This document shows positions 33,971 to 60,492 of a stretch of 64,000 nt of DNA, piece after piece (positions within the stretch are counted from its first letter, which is position 1; every line of letters begins with the position of its first letter). The translations under genes were made by a program, and so were the position numbers. The notes below the pieces were generated by a model that saw nothing but the letters and a program-made list of their open reading frames with translations, was not told the DNA's origin and searched no databases. Origin of the DNA: Bdellovibrionales bacterium (GTDB lineage Bacteria > Bdellovibrionota > Bdellovibrionia > Bdellovibrionales > UBA1609); NCBI GenBank assembly GCA_965261545.1, contig CBDHDF010000011.1, positions 224,001 through 288,000 of the forward strand. The letters are read 5' to 3'.

Positions 33971-34563
33971 TATTTATTAAACTCCTTAATGGCACTGATA
34001 TAAATGCCTTTTGGGTTCCACTTGTTGGGTTTATCTCTCATTAATTCAAGATGGATTTTTAAAGGCTGAACCGATTTGACCCTCTTGCCCAATGAAATAA
34101 CACGGTCTATTTCCACATGAACATATCCGTCCTTGGCTTCTATGTTTTGAATCACTACATCTTGAGAAATAGAGTTTTTCTTTATAAATTCTTTGGAATC
34201 CTTTATTTGTTGAAGCACCTTTTTTAGTAAACTATAAGACGCATAGGGGCTTATGTTTCGCATGATGTTTTCCATATTGTAGGACTTCCATTGATAACGC
34301 TCTAAAACAAATCTCTTGGCTGCCTTTTTAAGGTCGGATTCTTGAAGTTCCACCTCCTTTCTTTCTCCGACAAAATAAAAACTTTCTGACTCTGTGAGAG
34401 CAATCACTAGATTTTTCTGATTCATTAAATAAATCATAGTTCCCACAAGAAGCACATTGGACAGAATGAGCCCAAGAGATATTGTTCTTAAATTCCTAAT
34501 AATAAGACTGGCCTTGATCCAATGATTGCAAGGGCCTAAACGCTTTGATTTCATGTTCATCAT
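33970..34563 (-). CDS. VirB8/TraE-like bitopic T4SS protein
   Basis: N-terminal TM, FVLERYQW, C-terminal NPKGIYI. Confidence 0.7.
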   Translation of the reverse strand: MMNMKSKRLGPCNHWIKASLIIRNLRTISLGLILSNVLLVGTMIYLMNQKNLVIALTESESFYFVGERKEVELQESDLKKAAKRFVLERYQWKSYNMENIMRNISPYASYSLLKKVLQQIKDSKEFIKKNSISQDVVIQNIEAKDGYVHVEIDRVISLGKRVKSVQPLKIHLELMRDKPNKWNPKGIYISAIKEFNK

Positions 34564-39149: not shown

Positions 39150-39537
39150 GCCTCCTTTCTTCTTCAAAGCTAAGCTCATCTCCCACACAAAAAATGCCTG
39201 GGAGTACGGAGAATTTGATAAAGTCTTGAATATAACGCTCAGGCTTTCCCCTCTTGCCAAAATAAATTCCAAGTGCTAAAAGGGCCGGGAGCCCAAAAAC
39301 AAGGGCTCCCGTAAACAGGTTTAAGTTTTGGCTATAAAGGCTTTGACTATAAGCTTGGTCGTAAACATGGCTATATGCCTGACCATAAGTTTGACCATGA
39401 ACCTGACCATAAATCTGGCCAAAAATAAGATTCATCACAGATGCAAAAGCTCCCACAGCAATCACATCAAAAAGCTCCATGCCCAAAATCTTGATCTTTG
39501 AATCAAGGTTTCTATGAACAACAGACCGATCTATCAA
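39118..39537 (-). CDS. VirB3-like membrane protein
   Basis: VHRNLDSKIKILGMELFD, two TM helices, GKRGKPERY; TTG start overlaps VirB2 stop. Confidence 0.6.
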   Translation of the reverse strand: MIDRSVVHRNLDSKIKILGMELFDVIAVGAFASVMNLIFGQIYGQVHGQTYGQAYSHVYDQAYSQSLYSQNLNLFTGALVFGLPALLALGIYFGKRGKPERYIQDFIKFSVLPGIFCVGDELSFEEERRHEIVSSSEHR

Positions 39538-39857
39538 TTGAGGACCCCTTGGAGCCACCCAATAATGTAGGGAGCTAAAAAACCCACCCCACTGCCGATC
39601 AGACAAAACCAAATCTTTGACTTGGCTCCTTCATTGCCAATGGCGGCAAGAATCCCAGCCATGACTAAACCCAGAACACTCATCACGGGGAGAATGAAGG
39701 ATGACAATTTGTGTTGTAGATGAGTCATTTTATTTTCAAAACCTGACTTCAAGACCACAGCAAGGGCTTCACTTTGATAGAAGAAAGAAAAAAGCACCAA
39801 AAGGCTTAAAAGAAATATAATGACGGTTATTTGCTTCATCTCAGTTGTTTTCTTCAT
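39534..39857 (-). CDS. VirB2/TrbC-like conjugative pilin
   Basis: Signal peptide ending ALA followed by two hydrophobic helices; first of the virB-like genes. Confidence 0.65.
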   Translation of the reverse strand: MKKTTEMKQITVIIFLLSLLVLFSFFYQSEALAVVLKSGFENKMTHLQHKLSSFILPVMSVLGLVMAGILAAIGNEGAKSKIWFCLIGSGVGFLAPYIIGWLQGVLN

Positions 39858-39858
39858 T

Positions 39859-40296
39859 TTAGTTGGCCTCCTTCATAGGTTGATTAAATTGATTTGAATG
39901 ATTTAAAGAGTTTTTGGATTCGTCCCTTAAGCTCACCACAAGCTGTTTGAAGAATGGGGCGGGTTGCATGATAATCTCATGGGTGGAGGGGTCTAAAAAC
40001 CCCTCCCCTTGAGTAAAAATTTTTGTTCTTCCTCCTCTTTCTTTCATGGGTTTCATGGAGATGAGTCGGTAGCGACATGGCCTGCCAGCCTCACCTCCCA
40101 TGGGTTTTACAAAGTAATGGTTGTCTGGAAAGAAATTGAGAATGAGGCGGTAGTCACCATTTTTCTCATTGTAGTAGGCAACACCTGCCATTTCTCTGGA
40201 ATTTGTGTGGGGGCAATGCCACCACACATAAAACCTTTCATTGGCCTTGTTCTTATCATTGGAGTCGTTGGCATCGTTCTTAGGAAGTCTATTCAT
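39859..40296 (-). CDS. Hypothetical ICE protein (small beta-rich)
   Basis: Probable start MNRLPK at 40296, overlapping the upstream stop. Confidence 0.6.
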   Translation of the reverse strand: MNRLPKNDANDSNDKNKANERFYVWWHCPHTNSREMAGVAYYNEKNGDYRLILNFFPDNHYFVKPMGGEAGRPCRYRLISMKPMKERGGRTKIFTQGEGFLDPSTHEIIMQPAPFFKQLVVSLRDESKNSLNHSNQFNQPMKEAN

Positions 40297-41476
40297 GGTG
40301 AACCGCCTTTTCATTCTGATTTGCCACTTTACCCTTAGGGTCTGTGGCCTTTTTCTTACCGCTTTCCATCTTCTCACTATGGTCTGCCGCCTCCTCCCTA
40401 TGGCCTGCACCCTTCTTATTCTGATCTTCCTCCTTCTCCTCGATGAGTTGCCAATTAAGAATCTCTAGGCTTACATTAAATTCTCTTGTGACTTCATGGA
40501 GCATGGTCGTTGATGAATCGGATTTTCCAATGCTAAAATCTTTTTCTGCCTTTCTAGGGCAATAGCTATAGTCCTGAAAACCCACCTTCACCTCACCCTT
40601 GGATTCAACTATGGGCTTGATGTAAAGTTCATTGATTCCATCAGAGAGCATATCTTCATTGATTTGAAGGGAGGCATAGAGGTATGGGTCATTGAAACCT
40701 TTGAAGTATTTTATTTCCTCAAAGTTATACTCCTTATCTCCAATTCTTAGAACCAAGTCGATGGATTTTGAATCCTTATCAAAAGGAATGGGTGATTCAT
40801 TCTTTCCAAGATAGTCTCGGTGAGAAACCACACACTTTCCCTTTTCCTCTATGTATCCACACCTTTTTGAGATGTTAGACTTTGAAGGGTCTTCACAAAA
40901 ATGATTCTTCCAAGATGCTTCAACAGAGACATCATAGATGCTCGAGAACCGACTCTCTTTTCGCACACCACTTCTCACTTTGACTTCGACCATATCACCG
41001 GCTTTCACACGGCTGACCCAAAGCTCCTTATCAACTCTTTGGTCTCTAAGGATCACATCCATCATTCGTCTAAAGCGAGGAGGAGATACCTTTTTCTTAT
41101 TTTCAGGTACTGGCTCTTTAACATTGTCGGATTCCTGAGTAGGTCCTTCCTCTTTGTTTGTGGTGTCATTCAGATTATTGATGTCTTCCATGGCCTTTAT
41201 GGAATCTATGGCATCTCGACACCCATGACGTCCTTTTTTGCCTTCTGCCACCTCTGTAGGATCCATTAAAAGATCGTTCCTAAAATATTTCATCTTCTCG
41301 TCTTCTAGTCCTCTGAAAATGATGCAAGGAGTGCCTTCTGACTCTTCATCCAAACCACCACACGCAGACAAAACCATTGGCAAGGTAATAAGACCTAAAA
41401 AAGCTATTCTTTTAAAAATTCTTACTTCATTCTTCTTACAAAAAAATTGGCAGATATTATTTTTTCTTTTATTCAT
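40289..41476 (-). CDS. Lipoprotein, unknown function
   Basis: Lipobox LSAC; paired Cys in the mature part. Confidence 0.75.
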   Translation of the reverse strand: MNKRKNNICQFFCKKNEVRIFKRIAFLGLITLPMVLSACGGLDEESEGTPCIIFRGLEDEKMKYFRNDLLMDPTEVAEGKKGRHGCRDAIDSIKAMEDINNLNDTTNKEEGPTQESDNVKEPVPENKKKVSPPRFRRMMDVILRDQRVDKELWVSRVKAGDMVEVKVRSGVRKESRFSSIYDVSVEASWKNHFCEDPSKSNISKRCGYIEEKGKCVVSHRDYLGKNESPIPFDKDSKSIDLVLRIGDKEYNFEEIKYFKGFNDPYLYASLQINEDMLSDGINELYIKPIVESKGEVKVGFQDYSYCPRKAEKDFSIGKSDSSTTMLHEVTREFNVSLEILNWQLIEEKEEDQNKKGAGHREEAADHSEKMESGKKKATDPKGKVANQNEKAVHHE

Positions 41477-41682
41477 GACTGTAATTCTCCTAAAGGTTGG
41501 ATTTTTATTTTTTTTAGTTTTTTTAATTTTATTAATCTTCTTAATTTTTCTTTAACTTGTTTGCGATATTTCTTATCGTAGAATTTATTATTCTTCTGCA
41601 TATCACATCTTCTACTAATGACTTCCAAATCATTTATTTCTTTACCTTTCTTAAACGCACCTAAATTTCGTAGTTTCGACAT
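41473..41682 (-). CDS. Small basic hypothetical protein
   Basis: In operon, overlaps next start. Confidence 0.45.
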   Translation of the reverse strand: MSKLRNLGAFKKGKEINDLEVISRRCDMQKNNKFYDKKYRKQVKEKLRRLIKLKKLKKIKIQPLGELQS

Positions 41683-41686
41683 TACA

Positions 41687-41899
41687 TTAACTCTCCACCA
41701 CTATGATTGATTTGATCAGATTGAAGGTATCTACAAGATCAAGTGTTTTTTCGTTTCTCTCTTGTATTTCATCAATCGCATCAAAAATCTCCATTGTTTC
41801 CAAACTATAAAGACCACATGATGGGCACTTGTACGGAAAGTTAAATTCAACATAAAAAGCCTCATCACAACGCAAACAACTTTTCATTCTATATCTCAA
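41687..41899 (-). CDS. Small Zn-ribbon protein
   Basis: CLRC...CPSC; GGAGGTG RBS. Confidence 0.6.
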   Translation of the reverse strand: MRYRMKSCLRCDEAFYVEFNFPYKCPSCGLYSLETMEIFDAIDEIQERNEKTLDLVDTFNLIKSIIVVES

Positions 41900-41936
41900 A
41901 AATTTATCACCTCCATTTCAAATAAATTCTTTTTTA

Positions 41937-42512
41937 TTAAATTCTTTTTTTTATCACTTTTTTATTCATTTTCTTTTTCCCATGACATCGATTTCTTCTT
42001 ATGACTTCTTTCAACAAAAGATCAGAAATTCTCTTAAGGGCACGATCTTTTGTGTATTTAACAGCCACACGACTGACACCAAGCTTTTTTGAAGCTCCGC
42101 CCAAGCTAAGGTTTTCCCAGAAAATGTGATGTAAAACCTGTCTTTGATTCTCTGAAAGCTGATTGATGATCTCTCCCAGAATTTCTTCCAGATGAAGGAA
42201 ATTCTTTGGATCGGTGGCCGGAGAGAAGACTTTTTCATGATCTTCTTGAGAAAGATTCTCAGAAAGACGCCCCATCATGCTTGAGTTCTCCATGAGAAGC
42301 TCTTTTTGTTTAACGTCTACAGTGGAATCAAGATAGGTCTCCCAATCACTCGCTGACCAACTATGACAGACCTTTTTGATCTCTTCATCAGACATTGGTA
42401 AGCCGTCTTTTTGGGTCCAAATTTTACTTGTACTCTTTTTTTTCATATCAACTCCTTGTAATGCTCCCTGCAATGTTCTCTTGTTTTCAAGGAAGCTAAG
42501 AATTAAACTCAT
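41937..42512 (-). CDS. Sigma70 region-4 HTH protein (ECF/phage-type sigma-like regulator)
   Basis: LSENQRQVLHHIFWENLSLGGASKKLGVSRVAVKYTKDRALKRI; start may be 42446. Confidence 0.8.
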   Translation of the reverse strand: MSLILSFLENKRTLQGALQGVDMKKKSTSKIWTQKDGLPMSDEEIKKVCHSWSASDWETYLDSTVDVKQKELLMENSSMMGRLSENLSQEDHEKVFSPATDPKNFLHLEEILGEIINQLSENQRQVLHHIFWENLSLGGASKKLGVSRVAVKYTKDRALKRISDLLLKEVIRRNRCHGKKKMNKKVIKKRI

Positions 42513-42557
42513 TTTCTCACTTCTTTAATTATTTAATAATTTACTCTTCTTTCTATT

Positions 42558-42900
42558 CACCTCCTCTCATATATGTGAAAATGTTAATGTAGAGGATTAA
42601 CAGCTCCTTCTTTTATGGCGAGAACATCTCACTCAATCAGAAACCATCAAAACCCATTCCTTGCTATTCTGAGTCTCTTTCAAATGCTTCAAAAAAAGCC
42701 TTTCCCCCCTACCTATGTGAAAACGTTAATGTGGGGGGGTTAACAGTCCCGTATTTATTGAAGAAAATGGAATTCATTAAAAAATCTATTTCCTCCTATT
42801 TTTGAGCTCCTTTCAAATACTTGCCCAAGGTCTCTCCCAAAAAAGCCATTCCCCCTACCTATGTGAAAATGTTAATGTAGGGGGTTAACAACTCCTTATT
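42558..42900. repeat. Three degenerate direct repeats (~143 bp period) with core TATGTGAAAAYGTTAATGTRGRGGRTTAACA
   Basis: Cores start at 42572, 42714, 42860. Confidence 0.85.
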
Positions 42901-43470
42901 TATTGAAAGAAGCACCTGAACTCATCACGACCCTTCCATCATTGCCTTTCAATTTATTCAATGCACAAGACGGACCAAATGTTCCAAAGACATAAATGAC
43001 TGATTTTATTGGATATTTAATTTTGAGATATGGACCATAAATAGGTCATGGCCCAAAATATTGAGTTAATTTCATCGAAGCGAAGTAAAAGTAAAGAACA
43101 GTGGACCACTTTCGGTCTATTTAAAATATGTGATGAATGATTTAAGGGATTTAGACAAACCCACAAGTGGGACAGAATAATAAAGTGATGGATTATTTTG
43201 TCATTTATTACAATAAAATATTAAACGATAACCCAAAATCTAGAAATTTTTCTGATTTTTTTATGATTTTTTATTAATGAACTCGACGGAAAACCATGAG
43301 AGTCGGAAATTCAAAATGAGTTATATTAAAAGTTTAGAAAAATCCTCTCTTGTATCTCACAATCATAATTGCAATAGCACCTTGAGTTTGGCTTTCATTG
43401 ATAATCATAGCTCTCTGGATTCCTGTTTCAAGGGGTGATCTATTCAGTCGACATAGAGATTGGAGCCCTC

Positions 43471-48633: not shown

Positions 48634-49068
48634 TTGAGTGATGTATCTGTTTTTATTCCACATTTTCTATGCCTGCCCAGCTTCAACCATGGAATTTTAC
48701 GGAAACTCCACACTGAATGGAGGCTTTCTGCACGCAGTATCGTTGATCTCAGTGGGGGAGTATGGGCAAAAACTTCTATTTCCCAGGCTCTCCGCAAGCA
48801 CCAGTTAACAAAGCCCAGCCATGCTCAGCAAACTCCAACCTTTCATCGAAGATATGGAAAAACTCTCCTCAAAGGAAAATTGGTGGATCATAAGGGAGAG
48901 CAGAGAATCATTGAGCAGATGCTCGAACTAAAATCCCAGGGAAAATCTTCCTACCAAATTGCCAAACATTTAAACAGTAAGAAAATCAAAAGCAAAACCG
49001 GTGGACTGTGGACGTACCCCACAGTCACAGTCATCATCAAGCGGGAAACCCAGGAGGAACTATCATGA
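48634..49068 (+). CDS. Recombinase-domain (serine recombinase DNA-binding type) protein lacking the catalytic domain
   Basis: YG...LVDHKGEQRIIEQM...GKSSYQIAKHLN...GGLWTYPTVTVII. Confidence 0.7.
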   Translation: MSDVSVFIPHFLCLPSFNHGILRKLHTEWRLSARSIVDLSGGVWAKTSISQALRKHQLTKPSHAQQTPTFHRRYGKTLLKGKLVDHKGEQRIIEQMLELKSQGKSSYQIAKHLNSKKIKSKTGGLWTYPTVTVIIKRETQEELS

Positions 49069-49253
49069 AAAGTATCATCGACACCATCATTGCCATTTTA
49101 TTTATTCTCTTTGGCCTCGATTTTGGCCTGGAGTATCTCCACAGAGAGGTCAAAAGAGCCACCATCAAGAGACTCCACAAGGGACTCCCCCCACTGAGCC
49201 CAATGACTCAGAGAATGACGGGCCGGAAAATGACAGAGCCGAGAAACCCTTAG
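49065..49253 (+). CDS. Small membrane protein
   Basis: AGGAGG RBS, ATGA overlap, N-terminal TM. Confidence 0.55.
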   Translation: MKSIIDTIIAILFILFGLDFGLEYLHREVKRATIKRLHKGLPPLSPMTQRMTGRKMTEPRNP

Positions 49254-49855
49254 GGGTCCGGACGGAAAGGCAAAACAGGCAATGAAGCCTTACTCCTCCG
49301 GGCGAATCTACAAACCTGACTTTGTCTCTTTTTCAGAGATATTGTACGAATCTTTGTAAGAACAGTTCTGTTTTACAAACTTTGACTCAAGGAACCCCAT
49401 CCAATGGCATTAAAGATTAAATTTTCTTTTCCAACACATAAAAATTTTTCTCAACGACCTGTTTTATCTATTTTTTTATATTTCTAACCTGGCGCAGCCA
49501 GAACCCAGAATTAAGACTGGACTCCAGACTTAATTCCTAAGTCTATGTTTGCTGTGAGCCTATCTCACAGTACTTAAGAGGGTCGGAATAAAATTATGTT
49601 CGAATTTTGCAGATATAATGACAAGTAAGGAACTATATGCCCTCTTGATAACTCTTCCATTTTCTTATGTAAACCCTCCGTTAAGAATTTGTTTTTCTAA
49701 ATCTCGACATCCTGACAATCTCCTCTTGGGGAAGCCTCCGAATACTATAAAGTGCAAATGTGGTCGCAAAAATATTCCTTGGACATATAGGATTAAGACT
49801 TGAAACTAAGGTCTTCCTATAGTAGATTGCTTTTTGAAAGCATATAAAGGAGTTT

Positions 49856-50164
49856 ATGATGGAAGTTTACGAACTAATCAAAAAAGCAATTATTGAAAAA
49901 AAACAGGTACACGCTAAGTATAAAGGTCGTTCAAGAGAGATGTGCCCCCATATTCTTGGAACTAAAAGTGGAAAACCACGGGTTTTATTTTATCAGTTTG
50001 GTGGCGATAGCAAAAGTGAATTAAGCGATAATGGAGGCTGGAGATGCATACCATTAGATGGTTTAGAAGATGTTTCCCTCAAAGAGGGTGAGTGGCATAC
50101 AGTCATGGGAACAACTGACCAGAGAAGCTCCTGTGTTGATGAAATCGATGTTGAGGTAAAGTAA
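49856..50164 (+). CDS. Stand-alone WYL-domain-like protein
   Basis: IKKAIIEKKQVHAKY...REMCPHILG...LFYQ...WRCIPLDGLEDV; AAGGAG RBS. Confidence 0.72.
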   Translation: MMEVYELIKKAIIEKKQVHAKYKGRSREMCPHILGTKSGKPRVLFYQFGGDSKSELSDNGGWRCIPLDGLEDVSLKEGEWHTVMGTTDQRSSCVDEIDVEVK

Positions 50165-50219
50165 GGTTAGAAAATGAAGTAGTTTAGAATAATGTTGACA
50201 TGACTCTCCTCATCACAGA

Positions 50220-50260
50220 CTGGAGTTCCCCACAAAAAGTGGAGAGTTTTTTAAGCGAAT
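50220..50260. repeat. IS-end-like 41 bp sequence, repeated at 59651-59691
   Basis: CTGGAGTTCCCCA-AAAAA-TGGA...TTTT-TAAGCGAAT in both places, same orientation. Confidence 0.6.
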
Positions 50261-50513
50261 CTTGATTGTTTATAGCCCTTGAGTCCCTATGCATCAAGGA
50301 CCAAAGCGCCAATGTTTATTCAATTCCTGTAGTACTTTCTCTCCCATTATTCACATCCTCCGTGCTGTAAAAAGCATTTTGGGGTCATGTCACTTCATGG
50401 GTAAAATCGCTTTCAACCAAAACAACATTTTTCCACGATGTTGAGTTTGCCGTCACAAATACATTCGAGGAATTTTCAGGGAAGTACGTGTAATTCAAAG
50501 GGAGATTAGACAA

Positions 50514-53099
50514 ATGGTTTCATTAACAACAACGGAGTGGTTATCGAAAAGACCAAAATGGCTGCAGTCTGCTGCAAAGCGATTGTTAGAATCTGGCGAA
50601 ATCAATGAAACCGCCATTGGTGAACTTGTAGTGCTATGCCAGCAGGAAGCCAACAGTAAATTCCCTGATATCGATTACAGTATTCCAACAAATACCTTTG
50701 ATACACATGATTCGGAAGAAATCCGCTTATGTTCGATTAGCGAAATTGCAGGAGTTAATAGACTGGCTCCCAAAAAGCCACTTCATTTTGGTACCAACAA
50801 TATTGCTGTTGTTTACGGAAAAAACAGTTCTGGAAAATCAGGCTATGTCCGCCTACTCAAACATATTTGCGGAGCCCGTGACTGTATTCGTGGCCAACTG
50901 CACAAAGATGTGTTCTCGACTAAAGACGTTGTTCAAAAAGCCAAAATATCCTTTCTCAAAAACAACTCTCCTTCTGAACATGAGTGGTCAGGTCAGGGTG
51001 TTTGTGACGATCTGAGATCAGTTGACATTTTTGATACCTCTTTTAGCCGGGTGTTCATGGGTAGTGAGAATGAAGTCAGCTATGAACCTCCAGAACTTTC
51101 TTTTTTCAGCAGGCTTATTGATGTTTGTGAGAAAGTGGCGGCAAAACTTGATGCAGACAAAGAATCACTCAAATCAAAAATGGCGAATCTCCCTAACAAC
51201 CTCCTTGGTTCCACTGAGGCAGATTGGTGGGGAAAGCTTAGTGCTAAAACGCAGACTGATGAAATTGATATCCATTGTTCTTTCACTCTGGAAAACGAGA
51301 CGGAACTACTGGATATCCAGAAAAGAATTTCAGAACAATCGCCAGTTGATAAGGCCAGTCAATTAAAGAACAAAAAAACTTACGCTGACAGTATTATCAA
51401 TGACGTTCAAAATTACCTCAATCAACTATCTGATGAAAATTGCAAACGAATCATCGCTACCAAAAAAAAATCCATCCTAAAAGAGTCGGCCTCTGAAACT
51501 GCTGCCAAAGATGCATTCAATGGCGAACAGCTTGAAGGAATTGGTTCCAATGTCTGGAAAGAGCTTTGGAATGCTGCTCGGAAATATTCAGAGGAATTAG
51601 CTTATAACGGGCAGGTGTTTCCTGTTGTTCAGGACGATTCTGCTTGTGTGCTATGTCATCAGCCACTATCAGAAGATGCGAAGCAAAGGTTCATATCTTT
51701 TGAATCGTACATAAAAGGAGAGACTCAAAAACAAGCTGTTCAAGCAGCAAAAAAAGCTAAACAGGCTATTGATGCCCTGCCGGATATCCCCAGCGTTGAA
51801 GCACTAAAAACAAAGATAGACGCTGCAGGCATAGAGAATCAGAATATTATTAAGGCTCTGACTGATGCAGTCACCACTCTTCTGGATAGAAAAACAAAAT
51901 TACTATCACTTGAATCAGAAGACGCTTTAACGAGCATTGAGCAGACTCCACCTTGGTTGAAGGAAATACATAAAATCTCGCAGGAATACGAGGAAAGCGC
52001 TAAGAAATATCAGGAAGATACAACCAAAGACAATCGGGAAGAACTTCAAAAAGAATTGAAGAATCTTCAGACAAAAAAGTGGCTTGCCGAGCAAAAAACT
52101 GCGATTCAAGAAGAAGTCAATCGTCTCCAGATTCTTGAAAGAATTGAGAAAGCTAAAAAGAAAACCAGTTCTGCGGTATTGTCCAAGAAAAAGGGAGAAT
52201 TGGCAAAGACGCATATCACTGATGACTTCGTTAAGCGTTTTTATAATGAACTCAAATGCTTGGAAGCCTCTCAACTTAATGTCAAATTAATCCAACCCAA
52301 GGTTTCTAAAGGGAAAGTCCTTTACACTCTTCAATTGAATGGGGCTGCCCATAATCACCTCAATGACGTCCTTAGTGAAGGTGAGTATCGAATTGTCTCT
52401 ATTGCCGCATTTCTTGCTGATGTTACGGGTAGGAATTATCCGGCTCCCTTTGTGTTTGATGATCCGATTTCTTCTCTTGATCAAGATTATGAGGAAGCCG
52501 TGGTTCGACGGCTTTGCCAGATCGCCTCCAAAAGACAGGTTATCATATTCACGCATCGTCTTTCACTCCTGGGGATGGTTCAGGATTATGCCAAAGGTGC
52601 AAGTATCGAGCCTACAATCATTTGCATTCGTGAAGAACCATGGGGAACTGGTGAACCTGGAAACACTCCATTGTATGCACAAAGACCATTACAAGCACTT
52701 AACACTCTAATCGAGAGGCTTTCACAAGCAAAAAATATTTTTAATAAAAAGGGTTATGATGCTTATGAATCAGAAGCGAAGTCTCTTTGCATTGAATTCA
52801 GAATTCTTCTCGAACGAATGGTAGAGTATGAGCTCATGTCAGATGTTGTACATCGGTATAGGCGGGCAATTAATACAATGGGCAAAATTGGCAATTTGGC
52901 AAAGATCTCAAAAAAAGACTGTACATATTTTGATAATTTGATGAAAAAGTATTCAAAATATGTACACTCCCAGCCACTTGAAGTACCCCTCCCTCTTCCA
53001 AAGCCAGATGACTTAGAATCTGATTTTAAGGAACTAAAGCAGTGGCAAGAGGAGTTTAAAAAGAGACCAATAACTCCAGTTCTTCAGGAGGCTCAATGA
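50514..53099 (+). CDS. RloC/AAA_13-like coiled-coil ABC ATPase with zinc hook and possible C-terminal HEPN domain
   Basis: Walker A GKNSSGKS, CVLCHQPL, LSEGE, FVFDDPISSLD, IFTH; C-terminal RILLERMVE...SKYVH. Confidence 0.8.
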   Translation: MVSLTTTEWLSKRPKWLQSAAKRLLESGEINETAIGELVVLCQQEANSKFPDIDYSIPTNTFDTHDSEEIRLCSISEIAGVNRLAPKKPLHFGTNNIAVVYGKNSSGKSGYVRLLKHICGARDCIRGQLHKDVFSTKDVVQKAKISFLKNNSPSEHEWSGQGVCDDLRSVDIFDTSFSRVFMGSENEVSYEPPELSFFSRLIDVCEKVAAKLDADKESLKSKMANLPNNLLGSTEADWWGKLSAKTQTDEIDIHCSFTLENETELLDIQKRISEQSPVDKASQLKNKKTYADSIINDVQNYLNQLSDENCKRIIATKKKSILKESASETAAKDAFNGEQLEGIGSNVWKELWNAARKYSEELAYNGQVFPVVQDDSACVLCHQPLSEDAKQRFISFESYIKGETQKQAVQAAKKAKQAIDALPDIPSVEALKTKIDAAGIENQNIIKALTDAVTTLLDRKTKLLSLESEDALTSIEQTPPWLKEIHKISQEYEESAKKYQEDTTKDNREELQKELKNLQTKKWLAEQKTAIQEEVNRLQILERIEKAKKKTSSAVLSKKKGELAKTHITDDFVKRFYNELKCLEASQLNVKLIQPKVSKGKVLYTLQLNGAAHNHLNDVLSEGEYRIVSIAAFLADVTGRNYPAPFVFDDPISSLDQDYEEAVVRRLCQIASKRQVIIFTHRLSLLGMVQDYAKGASIEPTIICIREEPWGTGEPGNTPLYAQRPLQALNTLIERLSQAKNIFNKKGYDAYESEAKSLCIEFRILLERMVEYELMSDVVHRYRRAINTMGKIGNLAKISKKDCTYFDNLMKKYSKYVHSQPLEVPLPLPKPDDLESDFKELKQWQEEFKKRPITPVLQEAQ

Positions 53100-54334
53100 A
53101 GTTCCTCCACACATCAGACTGGCATTTAGGGCGCTCCCTTTACGGCAGGAAACGCTATGAGGAGTTTTCGGCATTTCTGGATTGGCTGACCCAGACCATC
53201 AAAGATGAAGGGGTTGACGCTCTCCTTGTGGCTGGTGATGTGTTTGATACCAGCACACCAAGCAATCGGGCACAGGAGCTCTATTATCGATTCCTCTGCC
53301 GGGTTTCCACATCATGTTGCCGCCATGTTGTGGTCATTGCCGGTAACCATGATTCCCCTTCATTTCTCAATGCCCCTAAGGAATTGCTGCGGGCGCTGAA
53401 TGTGTATGTGGTCGGCTTCATGACTGAATCTTTGGAAGATGAGGTGATTGTTCTTTACAAGGATGAGCAGCCGGAGGCAATTGTCTGCGCAGTACCGTAC
53501 CTGCGGGACAAAGATATCCGGACGATCGAGCCGGGAGAAACCATTGACGATAAAAATGCCAAGCTTGCTGAAGGGCTGAAAAAGCATTATACGGATGTCT
53601 GTAGCATTGCAGAACAGAAACAAACCGAATTTGAAAATGCCGGGCACGACGGTATTCCTATCGTTGCCATGGGGCACCTCTTCACAGCGGGCGGCAAGAC
53701 CGTTGACGGAGATGGAGTCAGAGAACTTTATGTAGGCTCATTGGCTCACGTTGGTGAGGAAGTCTTTCCTTCATCAATCGATTATCTCGCGCTCGGTCAT
53801 TTGCACGTTCCTCAGGCCGTCGGCAGCGCTGAGCACATCCGTTATTGCGGATCGCCCATACCGATGGGCTATGGCGAAGCGACTCAGGAAAAGAAGGTTG
53901 TACTCATTGGGTTCAACAGCACTACTTCAAATATTCGGGAACTTTCGGTGCCGTGTTTTCAACAACTGATCCGAATCGTCGGTTCACTGGACGATATCCA
54001 TGCAAAGCTGGAAGAGCTGAAAAAGGAAGAAAACTGTGCATGGCTTGAGATTGAATATACCGGCAGCGACATCATCGGCAGCCTGCGTGAAATGCTTGAT
54101 GAGGCATTGGCCGATTCCTTCATGGAGATTCGGCGGATAAAAAACAGGCGCATCATGGATCAGGTAATCAGTACGATTGCGGAAAATGAAACCCTTGATG
54201 ATTTGGATGCCGGTGACGTCTTTACCCGCTGTCTGGATACTTTTGATGTTCCTGATGAAGACCGGGAGGAACTGACGGCGTCCTATAACGAAGTAGTCAA
54301 GTCTCTTCGTGAAGAAGACGTAAATGCGGAATAG
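53096..54334 (+). CDS. sbcD: SbcD/Mre11 nuclease
   Basis: HTSDWHLG, AGDVFD, AGNHD, GHLF, YLALGHLH, YCGSP. Confidence 0.96.
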   Translation: MKFLHTSDWHLGRSLYGRKRYEEFSAFLDWLTQTIKDEGVDALLVAGDVFDTSTPSNRAQELYYRFLCRVSTSCCRHVVVIAGNHDSPSFLNAPKELLRALNVYVVGFMTESLEDEVIVLYKDEQPEAIVCAVPYLRDKDIRTIEPGETIDDKNAKLAEGLKKHYTDVCSIAEQKQTEFENAGHDGIPIVAMGHLFTAGGKTVDGDGVRELYVGSLAHVGEEVFPSSIDYLALGHLHVPQAVGSAEHIRYCGSPIPMGYGEATQEKKVVLIGFNSTTSNIRELSVPCFQQLIRIVGSLDDIHAKLEELKKEENCAWLEIEYTGSDIIGSLREMLDEALADSFMEIRRIKNRRIMDQVISTIAENETLDDLDAGDVFTRCLDTFDVPDEDREELTASYNEVVKSLREEDVNAE

Positions 54335-54345
54335 AGAGGCTAATT

Positions 54346-57300
54346 ATGAAGATACTTGAACTCCGATTTAAAAACCTCAATTCCCTCTACGGTGAATGGG
54401 TCATTGACTTCACCGATCCCGAACATGTATCCAATGGAATTTTTGCTCTGACCGGCCCGACCGGTGCGGGTAAATCGACTATTCTTGATGCTATCTGTCT
54501 TGCCCTGTATGGAGCGACGCCCCGCCTTGGAAAAATCACGAAGAGCGGAAACGAAATCATGTCCTGTCAGACCGGTGAGTGCTATGCCGAGGTGTTGTTT
54601 GAATCTCAGTCTGGCCGCTTCCGTTGCCACTGGGAACAGCACCGTGCGCGAAAAAAAGCTGAGGGTAATCTGCAGGATCAGGAGCACCAGATTGCGGATG
54701 CCGACACCAGCAAACCCATCGAAACCAAAAAGAGTTTGGTCGCCGGAGTCATCGAAGAAAAGACGGGGATGGACTTTGACCGGTTCACCCGCTCCATCTT
54801 GTTGGCTCAGGGTGGCTTTGATACCTTCCTGAAGGCAAACGTTGAGCAGAAGTCTAAGATTCTGGAACAGATCACCGGCACTGAGATTTATTCGAAAATT
54901 TCACAACGTGTTCATGAGCGCCAGCGTGACGAACAGGAAAAGTTGAACCTGCTGCAGGTCGAAACATCCGGCATTGTGATTCTGGAGCCAGAACAGGAAA
55001 AAGAGATTCAACAGGATCTTGAAGGCAAGCAAAAAGAAAATATCGAGCTCAACGGCAAATCAGCTGAAACAAGAAAAGCCATTACTTGGCTCACTTCCAT
55101 TGATGGATTGAAAAAGAAAATCAGCAGCCTTGCTGAAGAAGCAGTTAAGTTGCAAAATGATGTAGAGGTATTCAAACCGAAACGTGACAAACTTGATCGA
55201 GCCATAAAGGCCGCTTCATTGGATGGATTGTATGCAACACTCACTACCATCCAAAAGCAGCATTCAGAAGATCAAGCGAACCTGAAAGCCAAGGAAGCAG
55301 CTCTTCCAGAACTGGAGTCTTCTGCCAATACGCAGGCAGAATTACTCAATTCGGCGGAACAACAAACGGTTAAAGCCAAAAAGGAGCTGAAAGCAGCAGC
55401 ACCGCTCATCCAGAACGTTCGCCTTCTCGATCAAAAACTCACCGAACAGGAAAAGGCTGTTTCAGACGGTACCGAGAGCTGCACCAAGGATGTGGCAAAG
55501 ATTGATGCGGATAAGCAGGATCGAGCTAAAAAACAGGAAAACTGGACCGAGGCCGAAAAAACTCTGAAGCTTGCTGAAGGCTATCTCAAGGAGCATGCAC
55601 AGGATGAATGGCTGATCAGTGGTCTGGCCGGTATTGAAGAACAGCTGGACAGACTGCTCTCCAGACAAAAAGAGATCGATCAGAAAGAGATAGATTACAA
55701 GAAGGTTGAATCGACTCTGGAGCAAGTGGTAAAGAAACTCGACGAATGTGCAAAGCAATGCGGTATCCGCAAACAGGAAATTGAGGACGCATCAAAAAAA
55801 CTTCAGCAAGGGAAAGATACCTTGGGTGCATTGCTGAGTGACCGACCGTTGCGTGAATATCGTACCGAGAAAGAAACTCTATTTCGTGAAATGACTTTTC
55901 TGTCAAGGATTGCGGAGCTTGAAGGTCACCGGGCCAAACTGGAAGACGGCAAACCCTGTTCTCTTTGTGGTGCTAAAGAACACCCCTTTGCCAAGGGGAA
56001 TATTCCGGTACCCGATGAAACCGAACAGAAAATTGAGATGCTCACCAAGTTGATCACCAAGGCTGAGGAGATGGAGGCCGCCAATAAAAAGCTGGAAGAG
56101 GGAAAAACCGCTGCCAACAAAAATCTAACCAAAAGTGAAAAACTGGAAGCAACTGCGGTCAATGATAAAAAAGCAGCTAAGAAAGACCTTGTGGAATTGA
56201 AGAATGACCTGGAGAAACTTCGGGCCGATTTTACCAAACTGAAAGAGGCGGTATCCGTCAAACTTCAGCCGCTTGGCATTACAGAAATACCCGAGACGCA
56301 AGTTTCATTACTATTTAAATCTCTCAAGGGTCGTTTGAATGCATGGAAGGATCAGGTTAAGAAAAAGGTGGGAATCGAAAAACAGATTGCAGACATCGAT
56401 AGTGAGATGAAGCGTCTGGATGCAGTCATTGCAACTCAAGAAGCCGCCTTGACTAAGAAGTTGGAAGGTTTGGAAACGCTGAAAAAGGAACATGCGGACG
56501 AGAGTGAAGAGCGGAAGAAATTGTATGGAGATAAAAAAACTGACGATGAAGAAAGCCGCCTGAATAAAGCCGTTACAGATGCTGAGGAAGCTGAAAAAAA
56601 GGCCAGCGCACTGAACTTTAAGCTGCAGCAGGAATTCACAACTTCAAAAACGCATGTTGAATCCCTGAAAGAGCGCATCGAACAGAGAATGCCGGAACTG
56701 ACAAAAGCGGAAACCGATTTCTCATCAGCACTCGAACCGGCTGGATTTTCAGATGACAAGCAGTTCCTTGAAGCCAGACTGACAAATGAAGAGCGGACTA
56801 TTTTATCTGCCAGAGCAAAGAAACTGGATGACACTCAAACAGATATCAAGGCCAGACAAAAAGATCATGAAACGCACTTGACCACGGAGATAGCCCAAAA
56901 GATTACTGACAAATCCCTTGAGGAGTTGGAATCGCAATTCAAGAAGTATGAGGAGTCACTAAAAGAGCTGTGCGAAGCCATTGCCGGTCTCAAATATAAG
57001 CTGAATGAGAATACAGCTTCCAAAGAGCGGATAAAGGAAAAGCAGATCGCTATTGAGGCTCAGAAAAAAGAGTATCATCGCTGGGAAAAACTGCATAATC
57101 TGATCGGTTCTGCTGACGGAAAAAAATACCGCAACTTTGCTCAGGGGCTGACCTTTGAGTTGATGGTTTTACATTCCAACCGCCAGTTGGAAAAGATGAC
57201 CGACCGTTATCTGCTTATTCGTGATGACGAACAGCCTCTGGAGTTGAACGTCGTTGATAATTATCAAGCAGGTGAAATCAGATCGACCAAGAATCTGTCC

Positions 57301-57603
57301 GGTGGAGAAAGCTTCATTGTCAGCCTCACATTGGCGCTGGGACTTTCCAAAATGGCCAGCCGCAAAGTTCGTGTGGATTCCCTGTTTCTCGATGAAGGCT
57401 TCGGTACCTTGGATGAGGAAGCTCTGGAAACCGCTCTGGAAACATTGTCCGGTCTTCAGCAGGACGGTAAGTTGATTGGAATCATCTCCCACGTCTCTGC
57501 ACTAAAGGAAAGGATCAGTACACAGATAACGATAACACCTGTCTCCGGCGGCCGCAGTTCACTTGCCGGTCCGGGCTGTAATAAGGTCGCTAACAGTGAA
57601 TAA
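54346..57603 (+). CDS. sbcC: SbcC/Rad50 SMC-like ATPase
   Basis: FKNLNSL, GPTGAGKS, LAQG, hook CSLCG..EHP, LSGGE, LFLDEGFGTLD, IISH. Confidence 0.96.
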   Translation: MKILELRFKNLNSLYGEWVIDFTDPEHVSNGIFALTGPTGAGKSTILDAICLALYGATPRLGKITKSGNEIMSCQTGECYAEVLFESQSGRFRCHWEQHRARKKAEGNLQDQEHQIADADTSKPIETKKSLVAGVIEEKTGMDFDRFTRSILLAQGGFDTFLKANVEQKSKILEQITGTEIYSKISQRVHERQRDEQEKLNLLQVETSGIVILEPEQEKEIQQDLEGKQKENIELNGKSAETRKAITWLTSIDGLKKKISSLAEEAVKLQNDVEVFKPKRDKLDRAIKAASLDGLYATLTTIQKQHSEDQANLKAKEAALPELESSANTQAELLNSAEQQTVKAKKELKAAAPLIQNVRLLDQKLTEQEKAVSDGTESCTKDVAKIDADKQDRAKKQENWTEAEKTLKLAEGYLKEHAQDEWLISGLAGIEEQLDRLLSRQKEIDQKEIDYKKVESTLEQVVKKLDECAKQCGIRKQEIEDASKKLQQGKDTLGALLSDRPLREYRTEKETLFREMTFLSRIAELEGHRAKLEDGKPCSLCGAKEHPFAKGNIPVPDETEQKIEMLTKLITKAEEMEAANKKLEEGKTAANKNLTKSEKLEATAVNDKKAAKKDLVELKNDLEKLRADFTKLKEAVSVKLQPLGITEIPETQVSLLFKSLKGRLNAWKDQVKKKVGIEKQIADIDSEMKRLDAVIATQEAALTKKLEGLETLKKEHADESEERKKLYGDKKTDDEESRLNKAVTDAEEAEKKASALNFKLQQEFTTSKTHVESLKERIEQRMPELTKAETDFSSALEPAGFSDDKQFLEARLTNEERTILSARAKKLDDTQTDIKARQKDHETHLTTEIAQKITDKSLEELESQFKKYEESLKELCEAIAGLKYKLNENTASKERIKEKQIAIEAQKKEYHRWEKLHNLIGSADGKKYRNFAQGLTFELMVLHSNRQLEKMTDRYLLIRDDEQPLELNVVDNYQAGEIRSTKNLSGGESFIVSLTLALGLSKMASRKVRVDSLFLDEGFGTLDEEALETALETLSGLQQDGKLIGIISHVSALKERISTQITITPVSGGRSSLAGPGCNKVANSE

Positions 57604-57618
57604 AAGGGAACGATTCTA

Positions 57619-59592
57619 ATGGTGAAAAAAAGATATCTGACCAAATCAAGATTCAAACTGGCAACCAAATGCCCCACGAAACTCTTCTATACAGAGAAAA
57701 GTGAGTACGCAAACCAGAACCTCGATGACAGTTTTCTCCTTGCGCTGGCCGATGGCGGATTTCAGGTGGGTGACCTGGCTAAATGCTATTTCCCCGGTGG
57801 CCATGATATCAAAACGCTGGATTATGAGCAGGCTCTGACTGAAACCAATAAACTGTTGCAGTTGGATCAGGTCACAATATACGAAGCCGCAATAGCAACC
57901 GAGAACCTCTTTATTCGTGCGGATATTCTGGTCAAGAACGGCAACCGGCTCAGCCTCTATGAAGTAAAGGCCAAATCTTTTAATCCGGAAGAGAAATATC
58001 CCTTTGTCAATAAAAACGGGACAATCAAATCCGGCTGGAAATCTTACCTCTACGACGTTGCCTTCCAGAAATATGTTATCAATCAGACCTTCTCGCAGTA
58101 TGAAGTATCAGCCCATCTCATGATGGCCGATAAATCCTCAATGTGCCCGACTGAGGGGCTTAATCAGAAGTTCCGTCTAGTGAAAAACCACAATGGCCGG
58201 AAGTCTGTTTCCATATCGGACAGTTTGATAGAAGCAGATTTAACACCACCAATTCTCTGCAAGGTCAATGTAGACACAGAGTGTGAACAGATTTATGCCG
58301 GAACAGATGGCGGAAGCGATCAGTCCCTGAGTTTCAAACAACGAGTTGATCTGTTTGCAGATCACTATGCCTCGGATACGAAAATTCCGTCACCGGTATC
58401 AATTAACTGCTCCGACTGTGAGTTTTATACCACTGACAGTGATGAACAGTCTGGATTGAAAAGCGGCAGGAAAGAATGCTGGAAAAAGAATCTGGGCTGG
58501 GACGACAAGGATTTCGAGTGCCCAACAGTGCTGGATGTATGGAACTTCAGGAAAAAAGCCAAACTGATTGAGGCTGGCTGCATCAAAATGTTGGACCTTA
58601 CCAAAGAGGATGTGGCTCCAAAGCCTGACAAAAAGCCGGGAATATCCGCAAGTGAACGGCAATGGCTTCAGATTGAAAAATACCAGGCCGGCGACAATAC
58701 GGTCTGGCTGGATCGGAATAGCCTGCAAAGCGAAATGAACAGTTGGGTGTATCCGCTTCACTTTATTGACTTTGAAACCACGATGGTGGCTATACCCTTC
58801 AATGCAGGCCGTCGGCCTTACGAAGGAATCGCTTTTCAGTTTTCTCATCACATTGTTCATGAAGACGGAACCGTCGAACACTATGGTGAGTACCTGAATG
58901 CGGAACAGGGAGCATTCCCGAACTACGATTTTTTGAGAGCACTTAAGGCTCAGCTTGAAAGCGACGCTGGAAGCATCTTCCGCTATTCCAACCACGAAAA
59001 CACATTCCTCAACATGATTTACCGTCAGCTTCAGGATGATAACACCGTTGAGGACCGGATGAAATTGTGCAACTTCATCAGATCGATCACCAAATCTGTT
59101 AATGACTCGGTAGATCAATGGATTGGCGAACGCAATATGGTGGATATGTTGGAAATTGTTAAGCGCTACTATTATAACCCAGCCACTAATGGTTCTAATT
59201 CTATCAAGCAAGTGCTTCCGGCAATCCTGAATAGCTCGAAATACCTGCAGGATAAATATTCAAAGCCGATCTACGGTTCGGAAAACGGGATCAAGAGCCT
59301 CAATTTCAAAGATTGGCAATGGATCAGGGTGGAGTCCGGAAAAGTCGTCAACCCCTATAAAATGCTGCCTAAAATGTTTCAGGATATCTCTGACAAAGAT
59401 ATGAGGATATTGAGTGATAACGATGAACTGAGAGACGGTGGAGCTGCCCTGGCAGCATATGCGCGAATGCAGTTTGAAGAAATGACAGATTACGAATGTG
59501 AGGATATCCAAAAGGCTCTGCTCAAATATTGCGAATTAGACACCATGGCAATGGTGATGATCTATGAAGGTTGGAAAGATCTTCTGCAGTAG
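57619..59592 (+). CDS. DUF2779-type protein: Cas4/RecB-like PD-(D/E)XK nuclease plus RNase H-like exonuclease domain
   Basis: LTKSRF...CPTKL, RADIL...YEVKAK, DVAFQ, CSDCEF...C; FIDFET...FQFSHH, SIKQVLP, LLKYCELDT. Confidence 0.82.
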   Translation: MVKKRYLTKSRFKLATKCPTKLFYTEKSEYANQNLDDSFLLALADGGFQVGDLAKCYFPGGHDIKTLDYEQALTETNKLLQLDQVTIYEAAIATENLFIRADILVKNGNRLSLYEVKAKSFNPEEKYPFVNKNGTIKSGWKSYLYDVAFQKYVINQTFSQYEVSAHLMMADKSSMCPTEGLNQKFRLVKNHNGRKSVSISDSLIEADLTPPILCKVNVDTECEQIYAGTDGGSDQSLSFKQRVDLFADHYASDTKIPSPVSINCSDCEFYTTDSDEQSGLKSGRKECWKKNLGWDDKDFECPTVLDVWNFRKKAKLIEAGCIKMLDLTKEDVAPKPDKKPGISASERQWLQIEKYQAGDNTVWLDRNSLQSEMNSWVYPLHFIDFETTMVAIPFNAGRRPYEGIAFQFSHHIVHEDGTVEHYGEYLNAEQGAFPNYDFLRALKAQLESDAGSIFRYSNHENTFLNMIYRQLQDDNTVEDRMKLCNFIRSITKSVNDSVDQWIGERNMVDMLEIVKRYYYNPATNGSNSIKQVLPAILNSSKYLQDKYSKPIYGSENGIKSLNFKDWQWIRVESGKVVNPYKMLPKMFQDISDKDMRILSDNDELRDGGAALAAYARMQFEEMTDYECEDIQKALLKYCELDTMAMVMIYEGWKDLLQ

Positions 59593-59747
59593 AAACAACA
59601 AAACTAAAAGGTACCCAAATGTCAGCCAAATTGATCGAAACAACAGTCAGCTGGAGTTCCCCAAAAAAATGGAAGGATTTTGTAAGCGAATTTTGCTTCC
59701 CGAGGGGCTCTCAAAGATAGAGCGAAGGGCCCTCACTCGAATTGCCA

Positions 59748-59835
59748 GGGACTGTAAAAATAATTGTGTAACTGCAATTTTTTTCTTAAATCTTAAAGCC
59801 ACTTATGTGGCTCCACTCCTGGTAAAAAGCACAGT
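59748..59835 (-). mobile_element. IS256 terminal fragment (copy 3) interrupted by IS21
   Basis: Matches 45009-45096. Confidence 0.9.
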
Positions 59836-60492
59836 TGTTAGCTGACAATTAAAATGCCCCACCGTCGCCAATGAAAAGTGGCCACTTTTCAGAGGAGGAC
59901 CTATGGTGATTTTTGGCATTGTCAACCGAGACGCATATAATCAATTGATATTACTCATAAAAAGGCTCCGAGCTGATAAGAACTCCTTTTGGGTTCTTGT
60001 CGACCTGGAAAGGGGCTTCGTGTTGGAGAGTCCTTCCATGACAGCCTATTCAGGTTCCATATTTGTCATTTGTAGACTGTTTCTGGATTTCAATGAGGTT
60101 AAATATATAGTCAAGAAAAGCCTGTTTAGGCTGTGCCCATTTTCTAAAGTATTTAAATTCCACAAGATTCCAACATTTGCCTCAATTTTCATGGAATTTC
60201 TTTCTGAAGACAGGCTTCCCTTAAAGCCGTCGCCAATTAAAATGTCCCACTTTCAATATGGAGGTTGTCGCCAATGAAAAGTGACCAATCTTCAGGGAGT
60301 GTTCAAATACTAGATGTAAAATTGCATGGCATTGCCCTCACCAGTTGCATGGTATTACCCGCACCGATTGCATGGCATTACCCGCACCAGTTGCATGGCA
60401 TTACCCTCACCAGTTGCATGGCATTGCCCGCACCAGTTGCATGGCATTGCCCGCACTGATTGGCATGACTGATTCCCCTTAGCATAGCGTCA

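Follow-up and report, generated by a model that had tools for sequence, protein, structure and literature searches.

Identity and setting of the locus

Do two zinc-hook ATPases and the nuclease genes adjoining them form one dedicated defence system, or are they exchangeable parts that lie side by side? The question is raised by positions 49856-59592 of the window (the whole 64,000-nucleotide stretch of Bdellovibrionales DNA analysed here), in which an earlier note had proposed a horizontally acquired five-gene unit against phages or plasmids. The five ORFs on which that proposal was built were confirmed, together with the ATGA overlap between the ATPase gene and sbcD and the gaps of 11 bp (sbcD/sbcC) and 15 bp (sbcC/DUF2779). 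The features are as follows:

48634-49068, + strand: short ORF with a partial serine-recombinase domain (PF07508 over residues 89-138, E=3e-8)
48644-59825, no strand: single-copy stretch containing the block (genome self-BLAST)
49856-50164, + strand: WYL-like ORF, 102 aa (101 from the second ATG), a separate mobile gene outside the conserved block
50514-53099, + strand: RloC-family ABC ATPase, 861 aa, PADLOC candidate PDC-S06
53096-54334, + strand: SbcD (Mre11) nuclease, 412 aa, intact, its start overlapping the ATPase stop codon (ATGA)
54346-57603, + strand: SbcC (Rad50) ATPase, 1085 aa, intact, CxxC hook at 538
57619-59592, + strand: DUF2779 dual nuclease, 657 aa, PF11074

We consider it reasonably likely that the four-gene block represents a piece of an integrative element's defence island, acquired horizontally and made up of three independently acting modules rather than forming an obligate system. 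Judging by their spacing, the four genes probably share a transcript; a promoter scan returned one site against 3.0 expected by chance. No RNA holder is listed for this stretch, a result with no bearing on expression. The single-copy stretch is flanked by high-copy IS elements, of the DDE_Tnp_1 type on the left and IS21 on the right (Pfam, flanking ORFs). The short ORF at its left edge is a possible remnant of the carrier element, and the related islands L010 and L246 terminate in a full serine recombinase. All listed pieces of the block were matched by short-read contigs of the source sample with zero listed differences, which validates the assembly only, because the reads come from the same sample. 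One contig with a joint skipping 48634-59836 (29-letter side) was discarded as a likely repeat artefact.

The WYL-like ORF lies 349 bp upstream of the ATPase gene. Its WYL label is weak: Atlas gave 0.96 to a WYL-named cluster, and in Pfam PF13280 reached E=0.034 and 14.6 bits, under the cut-off of 21.8; the same model appeared at E≤1 in 7 of 10 family members. Nothing in Pfam, PADLOC or NCBIfam matched the ORF at E≤0.01, hhalign against three canonical WYL domains gave 0.7% with shallow alignments, and a PDB search with the family profile found nothing credible. Its homologues are found on viral contigs and on small plasmids of E. coli, where the other block genes are missing, and no ATPase or sbcD locus examined had the gene as a neighbour. 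It is an unrelated neighbour and a separate mobile gene.

Composition, selection and foreign origin

The rho(CG) of the block was 0.83 (genome mean 0.59 ± 0.07), a value reached by only 2 of 475 9-kb genome windows. Specifically, sbcD (0.97), sbcC (0.85) and the DUF2779 gene (0.84) carry the excess, and the ATPase gene (0.68) and the 102-aa ORF (0.59) are near host level. The same step in CG from the ATPase gene to sbcD was present in loci L257, L003 and L010. The block is indeed free of IS copies, as had been observed, but this is weak evidence of selection: windows of 9079 bp lack repeats in 31% of cases across the genome and in 7% of cases locally. All four genes are under purifying selection (dN/dS 0.05-0.12), and their dS relative to L257 varies from 0.94 to 2.4.

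The block was acquired horizontally and is foreign to its host, as the earlier note had suspected. SbcD exceeded the cut-off in none of 24 genomes of the same family and in 1 of 16 other genomes of the order, and a protein search agreed. A search of the genome for a housekeeping sbcCD found no second copy; the concern that this might be the only vertically inherited sbcCD does not apply, because the present copy was not vertically inherited. The host genome also holds an AddAB-like pair. The block DNA had no match among plasmids.

The RloC-like ATPase

The RloC-like and SbcCD identities were both supported. The PADLOC model PDLC04893, a full-length HMM of PDC-S06 (PADLOC's label for a single-gene candidate), matched ATPase residues 6-851 at 1013.6 bits. 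The ABC motifs (G102/G107/K108, S621/G623, D649/D650 and H681, i.e., Walker A, signature, Walker B and H-loop) were invariant in 141 of 141 homologues, as was, among the homologues, the zinc-hook CxxC (C378/C381), which is borne on long helices in the AF2 model (pLDDT 91; top Foldseek matches SMC, Rad50 and Lamassu). Residue 105 is S here and G in 134 of 141. Decay of the protein was considered and rejected, with 11 departures over 304 conserved columns and a dN/dS of 0.06; at least 11 departures were also counted in 10 of 34 family members. By hhalign, the protein aligned to seven AAA_13 proteins at 99.4% over residues 375-690, and AAA_13 annotation is precomputed on many homologues 56-75% identical to it. 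A PDB search with the ATPase profile matched only the ABC motifs.

The C-terminal domain is probably HEPN. The tail is a predicted four-helix bundle (pLDDT 91.6) with R763, E767, E771, R781, S814 and H818 invariant in all 141 sequences. Among HEPN toxins, it aligned with 5YEP over 112 residues (Z 7.7, rmsd 3.6) and with 8XDJ over 111 (Z 7.5, rmsd 3.8), scores tied with those of unrelated bundles. No Foldseek match to the tail was found at E≤0.001. Atlas placed it at 0.92 to AAA_13 fragments, and hhalign against eight RloC tails gave 1.2% with shallow alignments. The canonical Rx4-6H motif is not conserved: S814 and H818 are invariant, but at position 812 K was counted in 107 of the 141 homologues, R in 16 and E in 11. 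Several AAA_13 tails also lack this arginine. The tied Z scores, the 1.2% and the unconserved arginine weaken the RNase part of the modular reading.

The subfamily has 2716 representatives at 50% clustering (E≤1e-30), and 100 plasmid records carry the family. Homologues lie within or beside RM, BREX and TA loci, including one between hsdS and PrrC-hsdR (L207); a defence-island context is thereby supported for relatives of the block.

The SbcD, SbcC and DUF2779 proteins

Both zinc-hook ATPases are intact, as claimed, each with Walker A, CxxC, signature and Walker B motifs, and the catalytic motifs of SbcD and of the DUF2779 protein are intact as well. SbcD matched TIGR00619 at 213.9 bits (cut-off 77.65), with DxH, GDxFD, GNHD and GHxH motifs and the C-terminal domain. 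SbcC contains the Pfam domains AAA_23 and SbcC_Walker_B and was covered over its full length by PRK10246 at 529 bits, below the equivalog cut-off of 750; it also fell under the TIGR00618 cut-off. Full-length matches of the sbcD lineage at ≥46% identity were found in 29 of 300 genomes of a phylum sample. Among 30 full-length loci from that sample, two had the ATPase upstream, none had DUF2779 and many lay among housekeeping genes. Of the 100 plasmid records with the ATPase family, none had an SbcD match at E≤1e-80. The pair belongs to a patchily distributed mobile lineage, found in islands and among housekeeping genes.

PF11074 matched the DUF2779 protein at 82.9 bits (cut-off 23.3). Following the domain assignment of PMC3985635 and PMC13621843, it has an N-terminal Cas4-like PD-(D/E)xK domain (D102, E115, K117; Cys 18/264/267/287) and a C-terminal DEDDy-type exonuclease domain (D384, E386, D509, Y637, D641), with the motif residues of both invariant in 31 of 31 sequences. 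The four cysteines are invariant in this clade, which suggests that it retains an Fe-S cluster. In the first phylum sampled, none of 301 genomes yielded DUF2779, although the set contained no positive control.

Exchange of modules around sbcDC

The four-gene order with identical junctions recurs in one other element, represented by two near-identical IMG/VR contigs, at 77% DNA identity over 9.1 kb. Homology begins at the ATPase start codon, and that copy lies behind a C5-methyltransferase/SNF2/MORC/HNH/Vsr cluster. The five-gene set including the WYL-like gene was found in no other element. The co-conservation on which the earlier note's proposal depended holds for four genes in a single further element; the modules are swapped or lost in close relatives. 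From sbcD through DUF2779, loci L255 and L257 share 90-93% identity, yet upstream L255 carries Sir2-HerA and L257 the ATPase. This upstream slot is exchanged exactly at the sbcD start codon and holds Sir2-HerA, an AAA_13-type RloC (as in L147), AbiE or RM genes. The slot downstream of sbcC holds DUF2779, GmrSD (L010), a pPIWI-associated nuclease (L011, L166) or unrelated genes. Of 62 loci with room upstream, 6 have DUF2779 directly after sbcC (6 of 12 at ≥66% identity and 0 of 50 below); a second phylum sample showed it in none of 5.

Of 81 non-duplicate homologous loci that leave room downstream, 13 have sbcD after the ATPase gene: 4 of 4 at ≥60% identity, 8 of 16 at 45-60%, 1 of 4 at 38-45% and 0 of 57 below 38%. 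Three of the 13 have a full-length ATPase match and only a 5' remnant of sbcD. In the 300-genome phylum sample, 2 of 10 ATPase hits adjoin sbcD. The longest contigs of P0005 and P0151 are both 20300, a hint of another linked copy. The link persists down to about 46% identity and across at least five phyla. ATPase and sbcDC have travelled together for a long time, as swappable modules and not as one new machine. Each module is usually found without the others, all slots are exchangeable and there is no fixed multi-gene set.

Explanations of the arrangement

In the modular reading, the four genes would have arrived together. The 861-aa protein would be a single-gene toxin-sensor of the RloC family, whose Rad50-like ATPase and zinc hook may bind DNA ends and whose ATP hydrolysis may unlock a HEPN-like RNase, so that cleavage of tRNA or other RNA would halt translation; the architecture is shown, and the trigger and target would be as in RloC. 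The sbcDC pair would be an ordinary, intact hairpin and DNA-end nuclease, presumably the conserved fixed point about which recombination exchanges island cargo; the exchanges themselves are observed directly. DUF2779 would be a stand-alone two-nuclease protein that fills the downstream slot in one sub-lineage. This reading is supported by the swaps at the sbcD start and after sbcC, the differing dS values and the ATPase genes on plasmids without SbcD. Counted against it are the exact recurrence of four genes, the low dN/dS, the long-lived ATPase-sbcD link and loci L009 and L068.

That link is what speaks for a functional pairing, which we regard as unlikely, in which SbcCD is kept beside the RloC-like toxin to clear away the cell's own hairpins and DNA ends before they set off the RNase. 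The brake would then be lifted by phage SbcCD blockers or end-protecting proteins, so that the toxin fires, and packing both would let the toxin enter hosts lacking sbcCD, with DUF2779 optional. The link is limited to one ATPase subclade (14 of 20 rows, SH-aLRT 99) and ancestral in it, in a quick tree of the 43 of 85 proteins that were ≥33% identical, but 6 of the 20 members have no sbcD at the locus and 3 more keep only the 5' remnant. ATPase and SbcD divergence are correlated (Spearman 0.81, 0 of 5000 permutations, over 11 non-independent pairs), and in L009 the link is kept though the SbcD comes from another lineage. Two more RloC-family/Mre11 adjacencies point the same way, the AAA_13-type RloC of L147 and a distant ATPase homologue preceding an unrelated Mre11/AAA_27 pair in L068, although the same slot is also filled by non-RloC genes. 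The host family without sbcD would fit, but the AddAB-like pair could clear ends, and the linked genomes G041 and G042 carry a second sbcD. Under the fuller and equally doubtful version, an RloC-like clade would have been domesticated together with its own SbcCD as a portable unit, in which SbcCD sets the firing threshold and, though intact, has been recruited for defence. The RNase would be a non-canonical HEPN enzyme, with R781 possibly standing in for the motif arginine, and the unit would represent a surviving intermediate step in the passage from repair to immunity that has been proposed for Lamassu.

The dedicated relay of the earlier note, in which SbcCD opens invader hairpins, DUF2779 degrades the ends and the breaks trigger a backup RNase, appears very improbable. 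Tight coupling, purifying selection and the full order found once elsewhere favour it, as do the activation of RloC by linear DNA and double-strand-break inducers (PMC3874168), the threat of SbcCD to the hairpin-ended phage N15 (10.1101/2025.06.15.659773) and sbcD insertions among hits that restored conjugation (10.64898/2026.07.06.735840). However, the full set occurs in one independent element, close relatives have replaced or lost each of the modules, and none of 156 genome and metagenome loci combined DUF2779 with the ATPase. We give still less credence to a non-defensive role, with sbcDC and DUF2779 as DNA-repair or element-maintenance cargo and the ATPase as a genotoxic-stress or dormancy factor. 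It would suit the roughly two thirds of the 30 sbcD-lineage loci whose scanned neighbours include no defence, TA or mobile gene (a reading of Pfam hits in which some neighbours had no hit or were off contig), a DUF2779 member quasi-essential in JCVI-syn3.0 (PMC13621843), the persistence role discussed as an alternative for RloC in PMC3874168, and the fact that PDC-S06 is only a candidate label. The RM, BREX and TA settings of ATPase homologues, including L207, and the methyltransferase-led cluster before the other four-gene copy speak for defence instead.

Comparison with known systems

No description of this gene arrangement or of an RloC-sbcDC linkage was found in the literature listings and passages covered. 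The ATPase resembles the RloC anticodon nuclease (PMC3458546, PMC3874168): in both, a coiled coil bearing a CxxC zinc hook interrupts the ABC ATPase, and a helical domain with RxxxE and a terminal His lies at the C-terminus. PADLOC files both its family and AAA_13 proteins under PDC-S06. Unlike RloC, it belongs to a distinct subfamily of about 860 aa without a match to Pfam AAA_13 (PF13166) at E≤0.01, and its tail reads K/T-Y-S-x-x-x-H instead of a conserved Rx4-6H, with the additional invariant E771 and R781. The nuclease pair has the intact SbcD, full-length SbcC and canonical order of SbcCD, but, unlike ordinary SbcCD, comes from a mobile, patchy lineage foreign to its host. The DUF2779 clade is likewise mobile and island-associated, unlike the PF11074 systems of PMC3985635 and PMC13621843, and has four invariant cysteines where the Mycoplasma member keeps two. 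On the likeliest reading, the block neatly illustrates how modular defence islands are and offers a clean test object for an RloC subfamily whose RNase motif departs from Rx4-6H.

Lamassu (LmuABC), proposed to derive from SbcCD (PMC12663957), also ties a zinc-hook, SMC-like DNA-end sensor to a toxic effector. In the block, however, SbcD is whole, with no LmuC split, and the toxic domain would be fused to a second, separate ATPase; neither LmuA nor LmuC was matched, and LmuB models matched only partially (52 bits at best). P2 OLD couples an ABC-ATPase sensor of DNA structure to a tRNase effector and is damped by host SbcCD/RecBCD (10.64898/2026.07.10.737580; PMC13648713), a published result that points to SbcCD damping rather than feeding a DNA-sensing tRNase. 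OLD uses TOPRIM and unlinked host nucleases, whereas the nuclease genes here are adjacent and their coupling is hypothetical. If the ATPase-sbcDC link is functional, a repair nuclease would be carried along to tune a DNA-end-sensing toxin, and the recent autoimmunity findings on OLD, SbcCD and RecBCD would be connected with the proposal that Lamassu arose from SbcCD.

Organization and composition of the block

Five ORFs, placed in the earlier note, were found again at the same coordinates:

49856-50164 (+), small WYL-like ORF, 102 aa
50514-53099 (+), ATPase, 861 aa
53096-54334 (+), sbcD
54346-57603 (+), sbcC
57619-59592 (+), DUF2779 gene

The last four are as tightly coupled as claimed: the ATPase stop and sbcD start codons overlap in ATGA, and only 11 and 15 bp separate the genes at the two following junctions. 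The small ORF is set apart from the ATPase start by 349 bp. The rho(CG) of the four-gene block was 0.83 versus a genome mean of 0.59, with 2 of 475 genome windows as high. The CG richness ascribed to the whole region held for sbcD, sbcC and DUF2779 (0.84-0.97) but not for the ATPase gene (0.68) or the small ORF (0.59). Genome repeat comparison showed that 48644-59825 is single-copy and bounded by high-copy IS elements; its freedom from IS insertions is real, but 31% of equal windows genome-wide and 7% locally were equally repeat-free, which makes it weak evidence of selection. Short-read contigs from the source sample matched the sequence inside the block, which, as the same sample, bears on the assembly alone.

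Repeats of at least three copies make up 39% of the bases of this genome, and IS elements reach 126 copies, an extreme expansion. A tandem repeat (23 bp, 5.9 copies) lies at 60322-60456, just 5' of an IS21 transposase. Additionally, an ICE-like element with up to three genome copies (27016-43470) lies 5 kb from the block, with IS elements between, and includes:

26904-28073, tyrosine integrase
36550-37749, TraG/VirB4 P-loop gene

The encoded proteins

The 861-aa protein matched PADLOC PDC-S06 over its full length (1013.6 bits), answering the PADLOC check proposed earlier; this label also covers AAA_13-type RloC, as at locus L147. The ABC motifs and the C378/C381 hook were invariant in all 141 aligned homologues, and the AF2 model (pLDDT 91) resembles SMC, Rad50 and Lamassu LmuB. 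With hhalign, residues 375-690 aligned to seven AAA_13 proteins (99.4%).

The last 141 residues are probably a HEPN RNase, although this is unproven. They are predicted to form a four-helix bundle with invariant R763, E767, E771, R781, S814 and H818; the R763-x-x-x-E767 spacing equals that of the R-x-x-L-E motif of AAA_13 tails, and Atlas placed the tail near AAA_13 fragments (0.92). However, HEPN structures (Z 7.7 and 7.5) scored only as well as bundles of no relation, Foldseek gave no significant match, hhalign profile alignment to eight RloC tails gave no match, and the Rx4-6H arginine was not conserved among the aligned homologues. Among other homologues, P0260 (1118 aa) carries an additional 270-aa C-terminal extension that, judged by eye, looks like tandem S24 peptidase-like repeats, and L207:5231-14934 holds a PDC-S06 gene inside a type I RM operon beside PrrC, giving two ABC-HEPN-type genes in tandem.

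Domain models and a motif check showed SbcD and SbcC to be intact. The DUF2779 clade has four invariant cysteines (18, 264, 267 and 287), suggesting what we take to be a Cas4/AddB-type Fe-S cluster. Its PD-(D/E)xK and DEDDy-type residues were kept in 31/31 homologues, and its reading as a two-nuclease protein follows PMC3985635 and PMC13621843.

The WYL label of the small ORF was reduced to WYL-like, given weak support from Atlas and a sub-cut-off Pfam match. Across 260 loci and the genome, its profile matched only the window and L156, where the homologue lies downstream of a lone DUF2779 gene; other homologues stand alone on plasmids and viral contigs. This mobile gene family (49856-50164; L268:3489-3803; L261-L267) lacks an annotation and has three conserved cysteines; the plasmids on which it stands alone are colicin N plasmids.

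Origin and conservation of the gene order

The window sbcCD is the sole copy in the genome, so the suggested search for a housekeeping pair found no second one. Even so, vertical inheritance does not account for it: the family model for SbcD exceeded its cut-off in 0/24 same-family genomes and 1/16 other same-order genomes, and close homologues came from unrelated phyla, bearing out the proposed horizontal acquisition.

The complete four-gene order occurred in two IMG/VR contigs, which are 99.5% identical and therefore count as one independent case. This copy is collinear with the window (77% over 9.1 kb, same overlap and gaps), with homology beginning at the ATPase start codon. A C5-methyltransferase/SNF2/MORC/HNH/Vsr cluster lies 5' of it, and one contig ends close to a serine recombinase. 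Between window and copy, dN/dS was 0.05-0.12 for each of the four genes, which are under purifying selection. In a third contig, where identity is 90-93% between the start of sbcD and the end of DUF2779, the upstream slot has been exchanged for type I RM and Sir2-HerA. No ATPase and DUF2779 genes shared a locus among 76 ATPase genome loci and 80 DUF2779 metagenome loci.

Linkage was scored for 85 near-full-length ATPase homologues after duplicate removal, leaving out of the rates the window and three loci with <600 bp downstream. sbcD followed the ATPase gene in 4/4 loci at ≥60% ATPase identity, 8/16 at 45-60%, 1/4 at 38-45% and 0/57 below. A quick tree restricted to the 43 nearest homologues grouped all 14 sbcD-linked copies within a single clade of 20 members (SH-aLRT 99), which extends over Thermodesulfobacteriota, Spirochaetota, Chlamydiota, Pseudomonadota and Bacillota. 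ATPase and SbcD identities correlated (Spearman 0.81, 11 non-independent pairs), with one clear partner swap (L009). In three linked copies sbcD was reduced to a remnant. Remnants of the 5' third only, behind RloC-family genes, suggest recurrent deletion or recombination inside sbcD:

L001:12583-13147, sbcD remnant
L002:12580-12983, sbcD remnant
L014:3425-3733, sbcD remnant
L147:1432-1766, sbcD remnant, abutting an internal DUF2779 fragment

At L003:17988-21521, an intact sbcC is immediately followed by several tandem, degenerate duplicates of the gene's 3' end. At L068:195-7545, a distant PDC-S06 gene precedes a different Mre11/Rad50-like pair (metallophosphoesterase and AAA_27), possibly an independent pairing.

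DUF2779 followed sbcC at 6 of the 62 loci with upstream room (18/80 dropped), all six at ≥66% identity, and at 0/5 in a Spirochaetota sample. Among 30 full-length sbcD-lineage loci fetched from 300 genomes around G041, two had the ATPase gene upstream and none had DUF2779; about 10 lay, by our judgment, beside a defence, TA or mobile gene, and many amid housekeeping genes.

Proposed working and alternatives

By analogy with RloC (PMC3458546, PMC3874168 and PMC3710099), the ATPase and hook would detect DNA ends and activate the putative RNase tail, whose firing would arrest translation in infection or genotoxic stress. SbcCD would perform its usual trimming of hairpins and ends and may on its own impede phages with hairpin ends (10.1101/2025.06.15.659773) or plasmid DNA entering the cell (10.64898/2026.07.06.735840), with DUF2779 as an accessory nuclease. 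We moderately favor modules working side by side, shuffled around sbcDC.

The main alternative, that SbcCD is kept as a brake on the toxin, seems unlikely. It draws on OLD: absence of sbcD potentiates OLD defence (10.64898/2026.07.10.737580), and RecBCD restrains OLD (PMC13648713). Against an obligate brake, sbcD is often lost next to full-length ATPase genes. The earlier idea of a single relay system is less probable again, and a non-defence role of the locus appears slightly more doubtful still.

Comparison with known systems

Although the ATPase is likened to RloC in its working, two RloC features, the canonical motif and an AAA_13 match, were absent as tested; it is therefore filed as a RloC-family PDC-S06 member, not RloC proper. 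Lamassu, as described in PMC12663957, has LmuA and LmuC; the window locus has neither, and this identity was ruled out. S06 is not named in the main text of the PADLOC source preprint, and a literature search found no account of the RloC-like/sbcDC/DUF2779 arrangement. The parts of the locus are all of known kinds; what is new is the persistent linkage of the putative toxin with sbcDC, together with a variant of the presumed RNase motif.
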